A stretch of 42,103 nt of DNA from a virus. Lineage: Duplodnaviria; Heunggongvirae; Uroviricota; Caudoviricetes. The position numbers were made by a program, and so were the translations under genes. Under the pieces are notes generated by a model. The model was not told where the DNA came from. It worked only from the letters and a program-made list of their open reading frames with translations, and did no database searches. The stretch spans positions 1-42,103 of the IMG/VR virus record IMGVR_UViG_2675903468_000011; one strand, written 5' to 3'. Positions within the stretch are counted from its first letter, which is position 1; the number at the start of each line of letters is the position of its first letter. Below, piece by piece: positions 762 through 41,634 of this stretch.

Positions 762-850
762 AAACAAGGCCGCAAAAATGGCCTGTGACATGCCACATTA
801 ACTTTTTTCAGCCAGCCGTGGCACGTTCTTGCATACGACGTGCTACGGTT

Positions 851-1006
851 TCATTCATCTTCGACCGGAAACTTCTTATACAAAGTCGATACGCCAACAT
901 CATAGATGATCGCCACTTTCTGGCGAGAAACTCCTGATGCAATTTGTCGTCCAGCCTGCGCCCATTGCTCCGGCGTGAGAGTAAGACAGTAAACTGTAGA
1001 AAAATC
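851..1006 (-). pseudogene. Remnant of a Pin/Gin/Hin-family serine DNA invertase (C-terminal HTH only)
   Basis: Minus-strand frame translates to ...LTLTPEQWAQAGRQIASGVSRQKVAIIYDVGVSTLYKKFPVEDE*, the characteristic C-terminal DNA-binding helix-turn-helix of tail-fibre invertases. No catalytic N-terminal domain; an in-frame stop lies immediately upstream. The ORF-track entry 808..1071 is a different frame. Confidence 0.6.
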
Positions 1007-1063
1007 TCATTAAACTTAATATAATAATAAGTTACAGAATTATCTTTACTAAATAATAGATAT

Positions 1064-1609
1064 ATGAACATTAGTGAACTTAAAAACTGTATACACTATG
1101 AAGTAATAGGTTATAAACGCCATTTTTCCTGGCGAAAAGCGATTGTTCGCGCAATAAAACACAGAAGATTACGTTATTTATTTTGGTGGCGCATAGCCAA
1201 ATACCTTTTTGATAAAGGCGGATACTGTCGGAAGATTGCGGGAAAAATAGAGCGTTTCATTCTTGATAAATATAATGTAACCGTTCCCTTAACTGTAAAT
1301 ATTGGTAAAGGGTTCGACATATCTTATCTCAATGGCGTTGTTATCGGTCACAAAGTTACAATAGGTGAAAATTGTTCAATTAAGCCTGGAGTAACTATTG
1401 GACTTCGCGGTGAATTTAATGATATGGATATTGTCATAGGAAATAATGTAACCATTGGCTGTAACGCCACCATCCTTGGTGGCAAAGTGCATATAGGGAA
1501 TAATGTAAAAATAGGAGCTCATGCATTGGTACTGCATGACATTCCTGATGACTCCACATTCATTACTAAATTTCACTCTGAAATTATTTATAACTCATCT
1601 CACACATAA
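1064..1609 (+). CDS. Hexapeptide-repeat (left-handed beta-helix) acetyltransferase, serine/sugar O-acetyltransferase-like
   Basis: Repeated [LIV]-G-x-x-x-x hexapeptides (VVIGHKVTIGENCSIKPGVTIG...VIGNNVTIGCNATILGGKVHIGNNVKIGAHALV); very AT-rich gene and upstream region, unlike surrounding phage DNA. Confidence 0.7.
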   Translation: MNISELKNCIHYEVIGYKRHFSWRKAIVRAIKHRRLRYLFWWRIAKYLFDKGGYCRKIAGKIERFILDKYNVTVPLTVNIGKGFDISYLNGVVIGHKVTIGENCSIKPGVTIGLRGEFNDMDIVIGNNVTIGCNATILGGKVHIGNNVKIGAHALVLHDIPDDSTFITKFHSEIIYNSSHT

Positions 1610-1619
1610 TTCCGTTTAA

Positions 1620-2192
1620 TCACAGCTCTGGCCATACGATATCCGGGGCTGTATTTATATCAATCCGACTCACTAATACCCGGTATTTTTTCCAGGAAGA
1701 TAGCATCGATACTTCCTCATCAGTTGCCATTTCAAAATTAACAGCATCCTGCAGAATTGTTATGTTATCAGTGGCTTCCTGGATTAATCTTGCCTTTTTC
1801 TCTTCCGCCTCCCGGATCCGGAACAGTTTTTCTCCTTCTGCATCTTTCACCCAGGCTGTGCCGTTCCACTTCTGAAACTCCCCATCCGGCGACAACCAGG
1901 TGACGTTTTCCGGTAATGGGCCAAGTTCAGAAATAAATAACGCGTCGCCGGAAGCCACGTCATAAACCGTTTTACCCCGATGATCTTCAACGAGATGCCA
2001 CGATGACTCATCACTGTTGAAAACAGCCACGAAGCCAGCCGGAATATCTGGCGGTGCAATATCGGTACTGTTTGCAGGCAGCCCTGTATGGGGTGGAATA
2101 TATGCATCACCTTCACCAATAAATTCATTAGTTCCGGACAGCAGATTATAAATTTTTATGGTCCGTGATTGTTCACTCATTCTGAATGCCAT
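1620..2192 (-). CDS. tfa: Tail fibre assembly protein (Tfa family)
   Basis: 190 aa; N-terminus [48 protein letters not shown] is the conserved Tfa chaperone signature of e14/Mu/lambda-type tail fibre assembly proteins; lies directly downstream of the tail fibre gene. Confidence 0.85.
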
Positions 2193-3307
2193 TATGCAAG
2201 CCTCACAATATAGTTAAATGCGATGTTTTTGACGGTGTTTTCCGCGTTACCAGCAGCGTTAACGGTGATGGTGTGTCCATGTGAACCAATCGCAACAGAG
2301 TGCGTATGTGCACCAATAGCGACAGTATGTGTATGCGCCCCAGCACTTGCTGCAGTACCTGATACTGAGTGGGTATGCGCGCCAGCAGAATTCGTTGCAC
2401 CTAAGTGAGTTTGAGCAGAGTTCGACGAAGCTACTCTACCGGAGCTAACGTTAGCATTATCCCCCTGAGATATCGGATGCGTATGTGCACCTGCTGAAGC
2501 TGCTGTTCCGCTAACGCTATGGGTATGCGCACCAGTGTTATTCGTAGATTTAGTTCCATAATCAAACGACGATGTGGTTTTCGTCCCCAAATCCGTACTG
2601 GATGCGCTGGCGCTGTGGGTATGCGATTTAATGCCATCCTGTTCCTGAGACAATACGGCACGACCACTGGCGGGTTTGCCCTTAATCGTCCAGCCACGCA
2701 TATCAGGGATCACGCCTGACGGATAAGCGACTGCAAGTTTCGGGTATGCAGATTTGTCAAAAGTCTGCCCCTGCATCAGGGCATAACCAGATGGAACTGA
2801 ATCTGATGGCCACGGGATCGGGGCACCTACAGGAAAGGTCGAATTATTTTCCAAACCAAGATATTTAAGGACATCAGCAACAGAGCTTTTTGCCAAAATA
2901 TCTCGCCCAACCTGTGTCAGGTCAGCCAAATTAGCGGTATCTTGATTGGTAAAATACGGTAATTTGTTTTCGGATGCTGAAAGATTAGCAAGTGCGGTAA
3001 GTATGGCATTAATTCTCTGATAGTTCTTATCTAATGCAGACGACATTTTTGCGATAAAGCCGGCCTGATCGCCATCGTCCTGTACATCCAGTCCACTTTC
3101 ATTTGCTGTATATTGTGCTATTGCAGATGCAATAAAGCTGGCCTGCCGAATAACCTTATTGACTTGCGCACTGGATGCTTTCCCTGCTGTAAATCCGGAT
3201 AAAAGCGCAGGCAACGCTTCCCATTCCTCCTGCGACATAACATTGGCATTTTTACCCGTTGCGAATGTTTTAAAGTCATTTTTTGCCATCAGAGTAATAC
3301 TCCCCAT
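2192..3307 (-). CDS. Tail fibre protein with His-rich (GAHTH) repeat tip
   Basis: 371 aa; position between baseplate genes and tfa; Ser/Thr/Gly/Ala-rich; tandem repeats [19 protein letters not shown] near the C-terminus. Confidence 0.75.
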
Positions 3308-3969
3308 GCCCCTACATCAAAACCACTGATAAATTCGTTATCCATATCAAAACCAAAAAATTTTGAACCTTCCGATGGAGTTTCCACCGAAGGTGTTTCA
3401 ATGCCACCCGCCCATACCCCGGCGGCTTTAACTGTGAGATACCCCTGTTTAATTGCCGCAATTAACTCACGCGATACATCTGAAATATCAGTATCAGGAA
3501 AGACCCAGACCGATATCGTCATGTCCTGGTTATCGACTATCTGCATTCGCAGCCCGGATCCTGCTGTTGCAGCGTCAAGAATTGCCGGAAGCGAATCATT
3601 CCGTCCATCCCAGTTATTAATCGCAATCTTCGCTTTAAGAATGACACGATAAGTTTCATCGCTGAGGTACATGTATCCGGAATCAGGATCGTATGGTCCC
3701 TGCCATACCCCCTGATCATATCCAAGCCCGTCGGTATCCCAGCTGAAATAGACACCTGAAATAGGCTGGCTGACAACACGGCTACGTCCGATCCACAATC
3801 CCAGAATGTCAAGTTGCACACCAACCGCAGAGTCAATATCAAATGCAGTAATCAGCCCGCTGGTGGCAGCCGCAACATCAATAAGCGGCCGGGTCATCAG
3901 ATCAACATGTGCAAGAAATTTAGGTTTGGTGGCGTGGTAGTTCGTGATTAGTTCGGTGTATTTGCTCAT
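3289..3969 (-). CDS. Baseplate/tail protein, Mu gp48 / YmfQ-like
   Basis: 226 aa, in conserved position between baseplate J-like gene and tail fibre gene; start overlaps upstream gene stop. Confidence 0.5.
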
Positions 3970-5165
3970 GACTCCACCGTTATAACGATATTTTCCGGGG
4001 TACAGGACGCAGATTCGTTATATCTGATATCAATGTTTGATGGCGACAAAGCCCCCGGGGATTTCCCAATCGTCAGTTCCTGAATATCGTAATAGCGTGC
4101 ATTCCCGCCACTCACCACGCCAAGATTTGCCGGTGAGTAAATGCGACTCAAAAGGATCGAATCACCAATCGTCAGACTATTGATATAGTCGGAAATAGCC
4201 TGCTGGATCTGCTGCCCTATCTGTGAGGTATAACCCGTAAAAACTTTTAATTTGATCTGGGCATAAACAGGTACATCACTGGAACGCGAGAACTTGATTA
4301 CATGGGGATTGCCGTATTTATCCGGAACCGTAACGGATGTTGTACCGTGAGTGGCTGTCCCCTGACCTTTATTCCCTCTGATAGCCTGAGCAATATCCGT
4401 CACATCACCGCCATCCACAATCACAGCAACAGAGTGTGGCGGTAACCCGTTACCGTCCTCCGAACCAGTATCATTTTCATAGAGTTTGTGGCGTGTTACA
4501 CCGGCAACATTAGAAACAGCACCATCCAGTGCTTCAAATGGGGTTATTGATGGCAACGCAACACTTTGCGACTGGCGGATACGTAACTCCGCATCAGTTT
4601 CTGCCGGAGTGCCCACAGTGGCTGCAGCAGGATTGGTTACCGAAACCCAGCCACGGGTTGGCGTATTAATTTCAGTGATAGTTCCAGCCAGCGCCGCCAC
4701 TGCACCACTGACGGAACATGTTGCGGTCACCATCACTGTACCATCCACGCCTACCACCACTGAAGCAGGCAAACGCCATATCACATTATTACTGTCTTTC
4801 ACGCTGCCATTAATGATGGTTGTTCCGGCAGTTCCTGTAAGAAGCAAATCAACCGTAGAGTTCGTCGCGCCTTTACGTGAAATACCATTTATTTTCACGT
4901 TACTGGTCAGTGCAGCCCCATAGCCGGTTGCCGGTGAAAAACAGTTGTAGACAGTTATCGCCGTATTATTGGCATCATGAATCGCCAGCGCCATCAGAGC
5001 CACCATCTGGCCGTCTTTGCTGTCCGGTTCGAGGTAGGCATCACTACCATAAATCTGCTGAAAATAGCTAATCAGGGTGCTGAGTATCGTCTGATAATCA
5101 GGCGCACTGATCCCCTCCGCGGTTACCTTTGCAGATAAACCGAGAGAATCAAGGTTCAGAGCCAT
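3966..5165 (-). CDS. Baseplate J-like protein (Mu gp47-like)
   Basis: 399 aa; size and position typical of baseplate J family; translationally coupled to neighbours. Confidence 0.65.
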   Translation of the reverse strand: MALNLDSLGLSAKVTAEGISAPDYQTILSTLISYFQQIYGSDAYLEPDSKDGQMVALMALAIHDANNTAITVYNCFSPATGYGAALTSNVKINGISRKGATNSTVDLLLTGTAGTTIINGSVKDSNNVIWRLPASVVVGVDGTVMVTATCSVSGAVAALAGTITEINTPTRGWVSVTNPAAATVGTPAETDAELRIRQSQSVALPSITPFEALDGAVSNVAGVTRHKLYENDTGSEDGNGLPPHSVAVIVDGGDVTDIAQAIRGNKGQGTATHGTTSVTVPDKYGNPHVIKFSRSSDVPVYAQIKLKVFTGYTSQIGQQIQQAISDYINSLTIGDSILLSRIYSPANLGVVSGGNARYYDIQELTIGKSPGALSPSNIDIRYNESASCTPENIVITVES

Positions 5166-5518
5166 TACGCCTCCGATGTAACAGTCGTTATTCCATAAAG
5201 AGTGTCGATTTCAGCGGAAAACATGACACGTCGGGTCGTGGTATCCACCGTCGTATTGAAAGAGAGGATTGATTTAACGCCCTGCGTTTCCAGAATGCGC
5301 TTACGGATCGCCAGGTTGTAGGTTTCCGGCTTCTGCCTGCCCAGCACGGACTGGATCCATGGAGTCCCTTCGGTGGTGTCGAGAAACCATTGCCCATACC
5401 ACAATTCGAATCGCGTTTTTACCGCCTGCGCCACGGCCTCCGGTGAGTTAATCAGCCAGGTGTCATCACCGCTGCCAAAGGTGTAATCACCATCGGCGTC
5501 TTCACGTCTGTATCGCAT
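5165..5518 (-). CDS. Baseplate protein, GP46-like (gpW-like)
   Basis: 117 aa; start overlaps upstream stop; conserved position between spike and J genes. Confidence 0.55.
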   Translation of the reverse strand: MRYRREDADGDYTFGSGDDTWLINSPEAVAQAVKTRFELWYGQWFLDTTEGTPWIQSVLGRQKPETYNLAIRKRILETQGVKSILSFNTTVDTTTRRVMFSAEIDTLYGITTVTSEA

Positions 5519-6270
5519 CAGTTTACCCCATCGGTATTGCTTCCACCGCGCTGAACACCGCCATGAGTGTGCGTATCATCGATTGGCTTGCCGTTAGCCT
5601 TAACGCTCCCCAAGAACTCAACAGCACCAGTGATTTTTGAAGCCACACCAGAAACAACAGACCCCACCATGCCCCCCATCCAGGTTAACAGGCCATGAAT
5701 GGTTACTTTCTCAGAAAAGTCAGCCAGAGGGGCGACCACATCAAGCCCCCCGGGAGCGACAATTTTAATTTTCCGGGTATCAGGATTAAGCTCAAAATAG
5801 GTGCTGCCGTCATCACTACGCAACTGTGTGGCACTGGTATTAATACCGCTAATCTTCCTTGCCTGCGACTGGGGACCGACAATACAAAACGCATCCGATA
5901 AATCATGCATTCTGTCATCGACCGGCTCCTGTATCCCGCCGCTCTGCCACCAGAAATCAATACAACGATCGGCAAAAACGACAAGACACTCATTCCCGGC
6001 TTTAACCGGAAAAGTCAACGTACAGCCTCCGCCGCGCGGAAATACCACCGGCACATCCACCAGCAGGGGTAATGTCGTCGACTGGTTGATTCCATTTGAG
6101 TCCGGCTCATAGCCTTTAATCGCAGGTTGAACAACTACCGTTACCGTGTCCGGATCAAATGACTGGACAATTCCGGGCATAGAAACACGCAGCGCCGACA
6201 TGACAGAACCAGCAAGTCTTACATCGGCCTGTTCTTTGCTACCAAGTTGAGCGCTTAAAGAAACGGGCAT
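5518..6270 (-). CDS. Baseplate assembly/spike protein (gpV / Mu gp45-like)
   Basis: 250 aa; Gly-rich; C-terminal H-x-H (DDTHTHGG) as in phage spike tips. Confidence 0.55.
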   Translation of the reverse strand: MPVSLSAQLGSKEQADVRLAGSVMSALRVSMPGIVQSFDPDTVTVVVQPAIKGYEPDSNGINQSTTLPLLVDVPVVFPRGGGCTLTFPVKAGNECLVVFADRCIDFWWQSGGIQEPVDDRMHDLSDAFCIVGPQSQARKISGINTSATQLRSDDGSTYFELNPDTRKIKIVAPGGLDVVAPLADFSEKVTIHGLLTWMGGMVGSVVSGVASKITGAVEFLGSVKANGKPIDDTHTHGGVQRGGSNTDGVN

Positions 6271-6293
6271 TCATATGTCTCCAGAAAGTAAAA

Positions 6294-6313
6294 AACCCGC
6301 CGGGTAGCGGGTT
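6294..6313 (-). terminator. Hairpin plus U-run terminator on minus strand
   Basis: ACCCGC-CGGGTA-GCGGGT hairpin; on the minus strand it is followed by TTTTTT. It sits just upstream of the baseplate spike gene, inside the late operon. Confidence 0.5.
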
Positions 6314-6387
6314 ACTGATCAAATATCAGGGTGTTTAATGCATATTTTATGGATATATTGCAATGGTATTTTCGATAAGGAAAAACC

Positions 6388-6843
6388 ATGCTTAATCATG
6401 AAGATCCACGCACAGCTTTAATTGATTTTTTGAAAAGCATTCCGCAAAACCTAAGAATAGATGAATACCTCTTCATTATTCTCATGTGTTGCGGTGAAAA
6501 CCCGCCGGAGGATTTAGACGATTTCGAACCAATCGTTGAGAAATATCTAAGCCGAACAGGATACGCTGGTTTTGGCGCTGTTATTTGCACCATAGCCATA
6601 CTGGAGCGTAGGTTATCAAGTGTAATGTTAAAACTGGAACGAGCTGAGGAGTCGTTGAAAGCATTATCTAATGAGAACGCTGATTTCTCTCAATATCCGC
6701 TGCTAAGCATGCCTCTGAAAAAGCGGCAATATGCTCAGGTTGTTGAGCGCTGGAGAGCTCTCTTACGCGGTGCGCTATCTGCTGAAAACCTTGCTTATTT
6801 CGAACAAAATCCGCAAGCGTTATCACTGGTGACAAAAGAATAA
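6388..6843 (+). CDS. Hypothetical protein (moron, opposite strand to tail operon)
   Basis: 151 aa ORF with AAGGAAAAA ribosome-binding site; low-GC; bracketed by hairpins; no recognisable domain. Confidence 0.5.
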   Translation: MLNHEDPRTALIDFLKSIPQNLRIDEYLFIILMCCGENPPEDLDDFEPIVEKYLSRTGYAGFGAVICTIAILERRLSSVMLKLERAEESLKALSNENADFSQYPLLSMPLKKRQYAQVVERWRALLRGALSAENLAYFEQNPQALSLVTKE

Positions 6844-35386: not shown

Positions 35387-36148
35387 ATGATGCAGGATCT
35401 CAATGAAATGGCTCTCAAATACCCACACCCTGTCGAAACTTTTCGTCAATTTTTAGTCGAATCCGGATTTGATGTTACCGGAGAAGAAAACAAAGCCGGT
35501 CATGATTGTTATCGTTTAAGTAATGGTGCCATCATAACGCTTTACCACACCGGAACGATTTTGATTCAAGGATCACAAGCGGCAAAACCAGAGGTTGAAG
35601 CCATTATTAATGAACACTTGGGTAATGCGCCAGCTCAACGAGTTCAGCCAGCCCTGGTTCAAGAGCCAGCCAAAAAGATTTTCATCGTTCACGGTCACGA
35701 CCATGCAGCAAAAGAGCAGCTTGAGCTCATTCTTCATAAGCTTGGGTTACCTGATCATTTTATTTTGCAGAATACAGGTGGTACTGGACTTACGATAATT
35801 GAAGAACTTGAGCGTGAAATTGGTCAAGGGCAGACAGCGACTCGTTTCGGCATTGTTCTTCTCACTCCCGATGATGTGGGATACTCCAAAAGAGACGGTC
35901 AAGAAGCAGCCCTGCCCAGGGCTCGTCAAAACGTAGTTCTAGAAATGGGGATGTTGTTATCATCACTCGGCCGCAGTAACGTGGTCATCTTGCAGAAGCA
36001 ACACCTTGAACAGCCTTCTGATGCTGCGGGTATTCTTTATCTCAACTTTAATGATCATGTTCGAGAAACTGTACCTCGCTTAATCCAGCGCCTTAAACAG
36101 GCCGGTTTCACATTTAATGAAGCTCAAATAGCGAACGCTTCATCTTAA
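35387..36148 (+). CDS. TIR-like domain protein (N-terminal unknown domain plus C-terminal TIR-like nucleotide-binding fold)
   Basis: 253 aa; C-terminal motifs KKIFIVHGHDHAAKEQLE, GIVLLTPDDVG, RQNVVLEMGMLLSSLGRSNVVIL resemble the bacterial TIR-like (COG4271-type) family from memory; own ribosome-binding site and downstream terminator. Confidence 0.5.
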   Translation: MMQDLNEMALKYPHPVETFRQFLVESGFDVTGEENKAGHDCYRLSNGAIITLYHTGTILIQGSQAAKPEVEAIINEHLGNAPAQRVQPALVQEPAKKIFIVHGHDHAAKEQLELILHKLGLPDHFILQNTGGTGLTIIEELEREIGQGQTATRFGIVLLTPDDVGYSKRDGQEAALPRARQNVVLEMGMLLSSLGRSNVVILQKQHLEQPSDAAGILYLNFNDHVRETVPRLIQRLKQAGFTFNEAQIANASS

Positions 36149-40037: not shown

Positions 40038-40234
40038 GCGAGAAACCCGACGATTTACTCACCCCGGATGAAGTATGCCAAAAGTTAGGTATTACACAGA
40101 AAACGCTATGTGAGTGGAATATTAAGCATCGTCATCGGGCTATCCTGGCACCAATTCGTTTCAGTGCAAAAGTAGTTCGTTATGAGCGCCGAAATGTCGA
40201 CGCTTTTATTCAAAAATGTCGCAGCCAGTATTAA
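40034..40234 (+). CDS. AlpA-family HTH regulator (excisionase-like)
   Basis: 66 aa; LTPDEVCQKLGITQKTLCEWN helix-turn-helix; adjacent and convergent to integrase. Confidence 0.6.
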   Translation: MSEKPDDLLTPDEVCQKLGITQKTLCEWNIKHRHRAILAPIRFSAKVVRYERRNVDAFIQKCRSQY

Positions 40235-41634
40235 CCTCGCCGCCGTAGCAATGCCACCTGCGCAAGTATGCTCCGCTCGTGAGCCTCGAAAGCTTCGCGC
40301 TTCAACGCAATCTCTTCCTGTAAAATCTCATCAGAAAAGTCGTAATGTTCTGCCATCGGGTCATCTGACTTGCTGGAGTGGTGAAGGCAAAGGAGGCTGA
40401 TTTCCCTTCGGTCTGAGCGGGAATAGCCTCTTTCCTTCATCAAGGCAATAACATTGCTCTTAAGGAATTTACGGCACATCGTATTAAATGCACCGTCTTT
40501 CCCTTTAACAGTCCCATCATGTTTTATTCCTTTTACAGCCCCGTCCGGGCTGTATGTTTTCACCAGCTTATCCAGTGATCGTTTTGAAAATGGCTGCATT
40601 GGCTCACGTGGCTGCAAAAATACATAATCCCTGTTGCACTCAGGAACTGAATCACGCCAGGCTTTCTGCTCGTCGATAATCCGCCGGATCTCAGGCGTTA
40701 TCGGCAGGCGGAAAGCCTTTTGTGTTTTCATAGCCCCTCGCATGCCGATAACCCCTTCCGGATAAACAATTTCACCAGCCTCCTCGTAAACGTAGTCCCA
40801 GCGCAGGTTATGGACATTAATCGGACGAACACCAGTGATGATCATGAAGCGAACAGCATTCTTCTGGTGTACAGAGGTGCAGGCAGCAACATTGAGCCAG
40901 AGTCGGGCGATTGATTCAATATCGGTAAAAAGCCGTGTGGGGGTGGGTTTCTGTACGCGGGAGGAAACATAATCATCTGGCAAACTGGCGGCAACATTGC
41001 GGCCGTTGCAAAGAATAGGTGCGCAGAACTTCCAGAACCGACGGAGCTCGGCAAACAACTCCAGGGCGTTATTGTTCGAGCGAGTGGCGATCCACTCGTC
41101 CAGCACTTCCACCAGCCGACTGTATGTTACGTCGCTGAACACCTCGCGCTCGCCGAACGTTGCTTTAATCCGGTCGATACGCACCCCGTAGGTTGTGAAA
41201 CTGTCCGGGCTCAGCTTCTGCCGGGCGACTTTGGCTTTGAGGTCATCCCGGTACATTTCCAGCGCTGCATGTACGGACTCTGCTCGCAGGCCACCGTCAG
41301 CCATACCTAGCGCTTTTTCGCGCGCCAGCTGGATAGCGAGCTCCGGCCACTCGCCGAGCTTTTTACCTTTGAGGCCCATCTTTTTTGGAAACTCGGCGTA
41401 AAATGTAACCTTACCGGCTTTGCTGAAATCGATACGGAGATAGTTCTCTTTTTCGTATTTGGAACGGCGAGCCACGCCGGAAGCAGCGAGGATGATTTTG
41501 GCGGCAGCAACACAGATTTTCATGTGTGCGCTGGTATAGGGGGGTTTACAGGCGTCCCATTTTTCAGATGCGGCTAAAACATCGTCATTATTGGGGCTAT
41601 CCGGATTATGTGTTACAGTGCGCGGCATTCTCAA
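40231..41634 (-). CDS. int: Tyrosine integrase
   Basis: 467 aa; catalytic-domain motifs TGVRPINV (box I Arg) and C-terminal LHHSSKSDDPMAEHY (His...Tyr region, comparable to lambda Int LLGHKSDTMASQY). Confidence 0.85.
   Translation of the reverse strand: MRMPRTVTHNPDSPNNDDVLAASEKWDACKPPYTSAHMKICVAAAKIILAASGVARRSKYEKENYLRIDFSKAGKVTFYAEFPKKMGLKGKKLGEWPELAIQLAREKALGMADGGLRAESVHAALEMYRDDLKAKVARQKLSPDSFTTYGVRIDRIKATFGEREVFSDVTYSRLVEVLDEWIATRSNNNALELFAELRRFWKFCAPILCNGRNVAASLPDDYVSSRVQKPTPTRLFTDIESIARLWLNVAACTSVHQKNAVRFMIITGVRPINVHNLRWDYVYEEAGEIVYPEGVIGMRGAMKTQKAFRLPITPEIRRIIDEQKAWRDSVPECNRDYVFLQPREPMQPFSKRSLDKLVKTYSPDGAVKGIKHDGTVKGKDGAFNTMCRKFLKSNVIALMKERGYSRSDRREISLLCLHHSSKSDDPMAEHYDFSDEILQEEIALKREAFEAHERSILAQVALLRRRG

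Follow-up and report, generated by a model that had tools for sequence, protein, structure and literature searches.

The 42,103-nt stretch of viral DNA analysed here (hereafter the window; IMG/VR record IMGVR_UViG_2675903468_000011) carries, beyond its tail-fibre gene and its tail fibre assembly gene (tfa), a remnant of a Pin-type DNA invertase gene and, next to it, an AT-rich gene for a hexapeptide-repeat acyltransferase-like protein, called the acetyltransferase gene below for brevity. Comparison with related prophages indicates that an invertible host-range switch was probably overwritten by a fixed cassette comprising a fibre tip, tfa and the acetyltransferase gene, with the 3' end of the invertase gene left behind as a stub. 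We regard this structural and evolutionary account, which does not include the function of the acetyltransferase-like product, as the best explanation of the locus as a whole and as a probable one. An earlier note on this DNA had read the locus as a locked inversion switch in which the acetyltransferase gene stood in the place of the lost invertase domain and alternate fibre arm.

Three E. coli prophages with the same backbone (loci L008, L009 and L135) still possess an intact pinE gene of 184 codons. In these sister prophages, pinE is followed by an oppositely oriented partial fibre gene with a tfa gene, and then by a second tfa and the fibre gene. Their invertible Sv/U-U'/Sv' segment lies where the window has the invertase stub, the acetyltransferase gene, tfa and another fibre tip, and the acetyltransferase gene is absent from all three. 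Inverted crossover (pix) sites with the sequence CTTCTCCCAAACCAAGGTTT were found in L008 and L009, ~1.8 kb apart. Both L009 and L135 adjoin yfhH, and the left flank of L135 is the same as that of the window, including the genes for a DUF2335 protein and a small peptide. L135 offers the cleanest 'before' state. Positions 1-979 of the window are collinear with L135 7001-7977 at 97.1% identity, and positions 3129-6179 are collinear with L135 10251-13301 at 95.3% identity. The sister segment replaced between these two arms held pinE codons 1-142, both pix sites, Sv', U', U and the variable part of the fibre. Within the fibre gene, blastn found the N-terminal 59 codons (3129-3307) to be the only stretch common to the window and the sister prophages with an intact switch.

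The overall order of the locus is that of the known Pin (e14), Gin (Mu) and Cin (P1) systems, in which a constant fibre part is followed by a variable part with tfa, a slot for the alternate arm and an invertase on the fibre strand. Searches of the window for the working parts of such a switch were negative. Neither the crossover core AAACCNNGGTTT with at most one mismatch nor the full 19-mer of L009 with at most three mismatches was found near the locus, matches to the crossover site across the whole window occurred at chance level, and an inverted-repeat scan of positions 780-3400 returned short, chance-like pairs only, with no pix-like pair among them. The gix-like inverted repeats that the earlier note had suggested looking for in the flanks were accordingly not found. 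An alternate tfa or fibre arm was likewise missing from the open reading frames of the window and their Pfam matches. We also searched the 42-kb window with intact PinE by tblastn and obtained chance-level matches only, apart from the stub; an intact invertase nearby in another frame, one of two observations that the earlier note had named as fatal to its reading, did not turn up.

Because no invertase, crossover site or alternate fibre arm is left in the window, the switch is locked, as the earlier note had supposed, and the sister prophages with the same backbone show what the complete switch looks like. Compared with Pin, Gin and Cin, the window is without the catalytic domain, the crossover sites, the pinE 5' region and the alternate arm, and is a relic rather than a working or silenced switch. 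More than being off, the switch has lost its recombinase, both sites and the alternate arm, and the host range is fixed. The loss of pinE from the window includes its entire 5' part. In gin and hin, the recombinational enhancer sits in the 5' part of the invertase gene, and the enhancer of pinE would, by analogy, have been lost with it.

The stub is recognizable and dead. Translation of 854-985 on the minus strand gives precisely the 44-residue peptide named in the earlier note, which matches the Pfam family HTH_7 (resolvase helix-turn-helix, E=7e-10) as well as the PHROG DNA-invertase family, and aligns at 90% identity with residues 143-184 of the intact 184-residue PinE of a related prophage. 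The survival of an invertase tail was thereby borne out, although the homologous part amounts to about 42 codons and not the ~50 that had been estimated. PinE residues 1-142, including the resolvase catalytic domain with the active-site serine, are not in the stub. Two in-frame stop codons lie immediately upstream of it, and its first in-frame start is a GTG that would open a peptide of merely 21 residues, with no ATG, GTG or TTG earlier. In-frame stops also occur within the stub in 6 of the 11 type-A relatives, which are defined as those having the cassette joined to the pin remnant. RefSeq flags the same relic as 'incomplete, missing N-terminus'. The 42-codon stub can neither be translated nor catalyse and is decaying. 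Its retention as a small helix-turn-helix regulator was considered and ruled out by the missing start codon and the stops in relatives. Past the pin stop codon lies a 45-bp element, which forms the left edge of the pin module or of the homology in every phage compared (L001, L007, L008 and L009, from 805-809). Unannotated copies standing by themselves, 91-100% identical, occur in other E. coli genomes, and the element may be a terminator or a recombination boundary.

The cassette on the other side of the stub extends over ~996-2836 (1.84 kb) and consists of a promoter with the acetyltransferase gene, tfa and the fibre tip. Type-B copies, which have the cassette without a pin stub, are homologous to the window without a break from 990-996 to 2833-2836, at 83-84% nucleotide identity. 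They are carried by a P2-like prophage (L005), a 47-kb phage-plasmid (L003), P1-like plasmids (L004) and phage vB_EcoM-613R2. The right border falls at 2833-2836 in lambdoid, P2-like, P1-like, Salmonella and Buttiauxella loci alike. Upstream of ~996, by comparison, the contexts are mutually unrelated, being the pin 3' end in the window and L007 and two other kinds elsewhere. In 43 of 45 IMG/VR phage contigs, tfa is co-inherited with the acetyltransferase gene, directly downstream and convergent. Pin codons 143-184 are joined to the cassette at an identical breakpoint in SEN34-like prophages (the window and L001) and in the lambdoid prophage L007, which is marked by Lom and StfR; the same 143-184 remnant is present in all 11 type-A loci, and the stub/cassette junction is covered by 64 E. 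coli genomes. Since this junction is identical in unrelated phage types, the sequences point to a single ancestral event, namely one joint inside pinE.

A different history, the one implied by the earlier note, was also considered. In it, the phage would have kept its original fibre and tfa genes, and the acetyltransferase gene alone would have been inserted into the phage's own switch, with deletion of the pin 5' part and the alternate arm. This history has in its favour that the gene lies exactly where the sisters have U'/Sv' and the 5' end of pin, and that some ancestor must have had such a joint at pin codon 143. However, the segment that differs from the sisters is the whole of 980-3128, including tfa and most of the fibre gene. 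The co-inheritance of the acetyltransferase gene, tfa and the tip, at 83-87% nucleotide identity, in phages without any pin remnant, and the identical junction in the lambdoid prophage L007, speak against it as well, and we judge decay in place to be improbable. The acetyltransferase gene appears instead to have come as part of a fibre tip/tfa cassette and not as a lone filler of a decay gap, because the cassette exists in phages without the pin remnant and the junction is common to unrelated phages. The earlier note was right in its structural reading, the position matching that of the switch in the sisters, but the separate arrival of the gene that it implied needs refinement.

For the replacement by a cassette, we propose the following course of events. 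The ancestral order would have been the constant fibre part, the pix-flanked invertible Sv-U/U'-Sv' segment and then pinE. One recombinational replacement (980-3128) would have overwritten this switch with a non-invertible host-range cassette made up of a lambda-Stf/T4-gp37-like fibre tip, a lambda-type Tfa chaperone and a convergent AT-rich moron encoding a left-handed beta-helix (LbH) acyltransferase-like protein. The left joint would have fallen inside pinE at codon 143, leaving the stub. The composite of stub and cassette would then have spread between lambdoid and SEN34-like phages by homologous recombination, with the fibre gene serving as one arm and the 3' end of pin, together with the 45-bp element behind it (805-853), as the other. 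The stub-less cassette circulates in P2-like and P1-like phages and in phage-plasmids.

One of the type-B carriers, the P1-like plasmid of E. coli ECE228 (L004), contains fragments of a group II intron at 3225-3494, matching its domains D1-D4 (RF02001, 96.9 bits; RF01998, 46.8 bits). The 1-kb stretch that contains them has no annotated gene; it lies between the cassette and the holin gene, where the P1 map has cin and the alternate fibre arm.

The acetyltransferase gene itself is intact and very AT-rich and lies beyond tfa and the tail fibre, as the earlier note had described. Its GC content is 35.7% and that of the 78 bp upstream is 18%, compared with 49.5% for the window. A scan detected a sigma-70-like promoter (10 of 12 positions matching), with TAGAAA at 997-1002, a 17-nt spacer and TATAAT at 1020-1025, and the site is kept in all nine aligned loci, which span three unrelated upstream contexts. 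The reading frame was intact in each of the 44 phage copies checked, and the ratio of nonsynonymous to synonymous substitution rates (dN/dS) between types A and B was 0.08-0.10. The acetyltransferase gene, unlike the stub, is under strong purifying selection. With a predicted promoter of its own, deviant GC content, location on the opposite strand and presence or absence among close relatives, it bears the marks of a moron, and its product would be expressed in the lysogen from that predicted promoter. Tandem repeats of the kind underlying neuO-like phase variation were not found in 700-2278.

We next considered what kind of protein the gene encodes. A structural model based on a 76-sequence alignment reached a predicted local distance difference test (pLDDT) score of 90.8; an earlier model from a 24-sequence alignment (pLDDT 68.6) was too poor and was set aside. 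The protein is predicted to be soluble and to consist of helices and LbH coils. The top 48 Foldseek matches were all serine acetyltransferase (SAT) structures (TMq 0.61-0.76), and the match to the maltose acetyltransferase fold was poor (TMq 0.31). By sequence, too, the closest solved relatives were the SAT enzymes known as CysE (HMMER, E about 1e-13 to 1e-8). With CysE (PDB 1T3D, 6WYE and 8I04, short isoforms included), the window protein shares the LbH coils, the helices that precede them and the conserved C-terminal coils that bind coenzyme A (CoA) in CysE. These C-terminal coils are the best-conserved part of the family (IGCNATILGG...IGAHALV...P).

The comparison with CysE, WcaB and LacA that the earlier note had proposed therefore placed CysE first in sequence and fold, but all family cutoffs were missed. 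The score was 78 bits for the serine acetyltransferase model TIGR01172 (cysE; cutoff 210.65), 50.6 for NF008349 (cutoff 397), 86 for EpsC (cutoff 150), and 60.4 and 58.9 for WcaB (cutoffs 196 and 194.65). WcaB of colanic acid and EpsC, the next-best NCBIfam matches, come nearest to it in size and architecture, having a short helical N-terminus followed by LbH coils. The window gene differs from them in scoring under their cutoffs, in lying outside a polysaccharide cluster and in belonging to an E. coli clade without the catalytic His. NCBIfam matches to LacA, Maa, Vat and CatB were weak and far below those to CysE, EpsC and WcaB. In the window protein, Pfam detected Hexapep-type domains only, with no match to the membrane domain Acyl_transf_3 (Oac/OafA type) and no SATase_N domain, which scores E=1.5e-37 in the Proteus CysE of L016.

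HMMER alignments to CysE structures showed further differences. The LDH motif of CysE (Asp157-His158) reads ISY in the window protein, so that Tyr88 stands at the position of His158; VDIHP is replaced by VTVPL and DRHP (Arg192-His193) by DMDI, and the column of Asp92 holds a variable residue in the family alignment. The equivalents of Asp92, Asp143, Asp157, His158, Arg192 and His193 are thus all replaced, and in CysE His158 and Asp92 form the catalytic dyad (PMC13040420). In the 181-residue window protein, both this dyad and the serine-binding residues have been exchanged. The C-terminus reads ...NSSHT, and the Ile tail with which CysE binds CysK is not present.

These results bear on the name under which the gene is filed. 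RefSeq labels it 'serine acetyltransferase', and PHROGs lists phrog_2154, which the protein matches at E=8e-78, as a function-unknown family. A genuine serine O-acetyltransferase, whose gene would be an auxiliary metabolic one raising cysteine production in the lysogen, would agree with CysE being the best match in both sequence and fold and with the label used by RefSeq and several phage papers. Against it stand the scores far under the TIGR01172 and NF008349 cutoffs, the missing SATase_N domain, Tyr in place of His158 together with the other five replacements, and the C-terminus without the Ile tail, and we consider it very unlikely indeed. Because the scores lie under the cutoffs, the SATase_N domain is missing, and the catalytic and serine-binding residues are replaced, 'serine acetyltransferase' is probably a misnomer. 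As the simplest reading of the sequence, we infer an acyl-CoA-dependent transferase with a rebuilt acceptor site and not an enzyme of the cysteine pathway. Such a protein would keep the acyl-CoA-binding coils of CysE and would not make O-acetylserine.

Two other possibilities for the product were weighed against this transferase. Tyr occupies the His position in 39 of 41 phage copies. The Tyr clade, from E. coli, unites the window gene with type B, with a copy in an islet between ybjL and rcdA and with metagenomic relatives that are as little as 53% identical, whereas His is kept in all 56 other Enterobacterales representatives examined. Other than the general-base position, no His is invariant across the family alignment. 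The E. coli Tyr88 clade could therefore be a pseudoenzyme, an LbH trimer that binds CoA or a ligand or serves as a scaffold, and that regulates or interferes instead of transferring acyl groups. The exchange of His for Tyr is unusual among LbH O-acetyltransferases, and every LbH acyltransferase crystallised by 2011 has a catalytic His according to the NeuO structure paper (PMC3046976). Strong purifying selection and the conserved CoA-binding coils argue against a pseudoenzyme, and the strict conservation of the Tyr points to a side chain with a function. Moreover, the LbH N-acetyltransferases WlbB and QdtC work without a catalytic base. We hold a pseudoenzyme to be unlikely. A small-molecule acetyltransferase of the LacA/Maa/Vat/CatB kind, acting on a xenobiotic, sugar or antibiotic in detoxification or resistance unrelated to the fibre, would suit the single-gene islets in varied chromosomal settings, which fit a stand-alone detoxifying enzyme, and the weak NCBIfam matches to these four families. 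Yet those matches are far weaker than the ones to CysE, EpsC and WcaB, the maltose acetyltransferase fold fits poorly, and the repeated adjacency to tfa would be left unexplained, so that this possibility, too, seems improbable to us.

The gene was found in 315 of 5426 complete E. coli genomes. By nucleotide identity, 64 E. coli records at 95-99% represent type A and 182 at 80-90%, including 58 plasmid copies, represent type B; another 71 lie at 60-80%, and the single one of these inspected is the ybjL-rcdA islet. Divergent paralogues at 37-52% identity lie beside a tail-collar fibre gene and tfa in Hafnia phage yong2, Citrobacter rodentium phage phiNP, E. coli phage Ro157c2YLVW, the P1-like JL22 and one prophage each of Salmonella and Buttiauxella. 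The tfa-adjacent members are scattered and polyphyletic in a neighbour-joining tree of the family. The alternative that the earlier note had allowed for, a conserved chromosomal gene unrelated to the prophage, is not what these data show for the window gene.

The target of the product would, judging from this repeated adjacency to fibre tip and tfa, be something that matters to the fibre concerned. Tentatively, and as the foremost of several possibilities rather than a likelihood, we propose a putative role close to the modification of surface polysaccharide suggested in the earlier note. The protein would acetylate an envelope glycan that is put together at the cytoplasmic face, or some other acceptor that is not serine, and would so alter the receptor or surface met by phages with this fibre, with exclusion, lysogenic conversion or seroconversion as the outcome. 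A wider proposal, which we regard as doubtful, is that phrog_2154 would be a receptor- or envelope-modifying exclusion factor coupled to a tip that recognises the same structure. Fibre tip, Tfa and modifier would, under this proposal, form a single host-range/exclusion cassette that passes between Enterobacterales phages with lambdoid, P2-like, P1-like or SEN34-like backbones. The His-to-Tyr active site of the E. coli clade would then imply a new acceptor or a new chemistry for an enzyme of the CysE fold.

Several observations weigh against such a role. Most species-representative members of the family are single-gene islets in unrelated chromosomal settings, and no polysaccharide cluster was recognisable among the sampled neighbours at 57 species-representative loci. 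These neighbours included an autotransporter, cysE/trmL, transporters, a GGDEF protein, a TonB-dependent receptor and a methyltransferase; a glycan pathway was hinted at, weakly, by just two proteins, the DUF6056 membrane protein of Salmonella L013 and the DUF3413-sulfatase protein of Proteus L038. The same type of tfa and fibre tip is common without the gene, as in lambda and the mEp phages, which makes the link optional, and in the P2-like phage ESSI2_ev015 a family member lies beside int and not tfa. The PADLOC defence models gave no match at E<=0.01. The promoter is a predicted one, a match to the consensus, and without the canonical catalytic His the E. coli clade may have no enzymatic activity.

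Some other members of the family deserve mention. The ybjL-rcdA islet copy (L006 4935-5486, E. coli O145:H28 RM12761) is 72% identical to the window gene at the nucleotide level, has Tyr88 and stands as a single gene in surroundings otherwise free of phage genes; being chromosomal, it rules out that the Tyr88 clade is strictly phage-borne. In the P1-like JL22 (L139 2522-2998), a 37%-identical member lies between convergent sets, with S-U one way and tfa-stf the other, at the centre of a layout that resembles an invertible segment. In the Salmonella enterica s1 prophage (L013), a 512-residue DUF6056 integral membrane protein is encoded at 3710-5248, directly upstream of a 48%-identical family member that is itself beside a Gp34-type fibre gene, and the two may form an envelope-modification pair. 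In the nine sampled species of Proteus (L016-L028 and L057), a His-containing member at ~5986-6543 is fixed right after a genuine cysE and ahead of a SpoU-type (trmL-like) methylase and looks like a conserved chromosomal paralogue beside the real SAT.

Among characterized proteins, the closest in biology is NeuO of prophage CUS-3, a soluble LbH polysialic acid O-acetyltransferase that sets a precedent for lysogenic conversion by an LbH enzyme (PMC3046976). The sequence similarity is marginal (E about 1e-3 to PDB 2WLC). NeuO relies on a catalytic His/Trp pair whose His sits in a protruding loop, and its 5' heptanucleotide repeat is phase-variable, whereas the window gene has Tyr88 at the only aligned catalytic position and no such repeat. 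Other morons are known next to tail-fibre genes, including the sopE cassette in SopE-phi, effector loci downstream of lambdoid fibre genes and Z/fun of P2. Like these, the acetyltransferase gene is self-contained, compositionally distinct, equipped with its own predicted promoter and located at the fibre end of the late operon. It differs in travelling with the tip and tfa across at least four phage backbones, and divergent paralogues take the same slot in several genera.

The arrangement as such is ordinary, common and already annotated, RefSeq having flagged the stub. It is a case of textbook modular phage evolution, in which an invertible switch was probably overwritten by a fixed fibre cassette and a pseudogene stub was left. 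In full-text literature searches, the gene was mentioned merely in passing, as unexplained cargo; ORF4 of Citrobacter phiNP, for instance, is listed as a "fitness" gene (PMC6456863). The analysis adds a direct before/after comparison with the intact switch, a definition of the cassette of tip, tfa and acetyltransferase gene with a map of its spread, evidence for a dead stub as opposed to a selected acetyltransferase gene, and the case for a misnomer. The label 'serine acetyltransferase', used in RefSeq and for P1-like JL22 and Citrobacter phiNP, should not be read as denoting a cysteine-metabolism fitness gene. If the gene modifies the receptor of the fibre beside it, receptor specificity and superinfection exclusion would be inherited as a single compact module, which, if true, would be relevant to prophage-driven surface variation and to the choice of therapeutic phages.

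The coordinates of the locus are collected in Table 1. The window is an entire prophage, with a CI-like repressor, a VapE-type primase, a family A polymerase and a tyrosine integrase at 40231-41634, the far end from the tail-fibre locus. Over the structural region, the identity to vB_EcoM-611R5 and similar induced myoviruses of E. coli is 97.5%, and Salmonella phage SEN34 is a more distant relative. The element as a whole is a SEN34-like prophage of E. coli, complete and of the temperate myovirus type. In the late operon, Pfam places the baseplate genes (DUF2612 and baseplate J) first, followed by the tail-fibre gene and then tfa, which is convergent with the acetyltransferase gene at a distance of 10 bp. 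An Rfam scan of the window for structured RNAs returned nothing.

Table 1. Features of the tail-fibre locus, in coordinates of the window
Feature	Position	Strand	Remarks
45-bp element past the pin stop codon	about 805/809-853	n/a	imperfect inverted repeat CCGTGGCACG...CGTGCTACGG
Pin-type invertase relic	851-985	minus	helix-turn-helix codons 143-184 at 854-979; stop codon 851-853; two junction codons 980-985
Replacement segment	980-3128	n/a	2149 bp in place of 2273 bp in L135 (2544 bp in L009)
AT-rich leader of the acetyltransferase cassette	986-1063	plus	18% GC; left cassette border ~990-996
Hexapeptide-repeat acyltransferase-like gene	1064-1609	plus	181 amino acids; Pfam Hexapep E=1e-13; phrog_2154
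tfa, lambda-type tail fibre assembly protein gene	1620-2192	minus	Caudo_TAP E=2e-37
Tail-fibre gene, whole	2192-3307	minus	Pfam Collar domain and His-rich Phage_fiber repeats
Fibre distal part (tip), Collar domain onward	2192-2836	minus	right-hand part of the mobile cassette; His-rich Phage_fiber repeats
Fibre proximal part	2837-3307	minus	blastn against L008, L009 and L135

Beyond the pin stub, two genes lie on the plus strand, one for a DUF2335 membrane protein at 1-507 (phrog_3996, 'moron') and one for a 77-residue peptide with a signal-like N-terminus at 528-761 (phrog_3117/14503). This pair adjoins an intact pinE in 65 E. coli genomes. Amid the spike and baseplate genes, a 151-residue open reading frame at 6388-6843 (plus strand) runs opposite to its neighbours and has no Pfam match. 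The relative L001 has a DUF2335 gene at this slot, on the strand of the tail genes, which suggests a second moron slot within the tail operon. Finally, the early region contains, between the family A polymerase and other replication genes, a gene at 35387-36148 (plus strand) for a 253-residue protein with a TIR domain of the CAP12/Pycsar-effector type (E=6e-31), a candidate prophage-borne defence gene.

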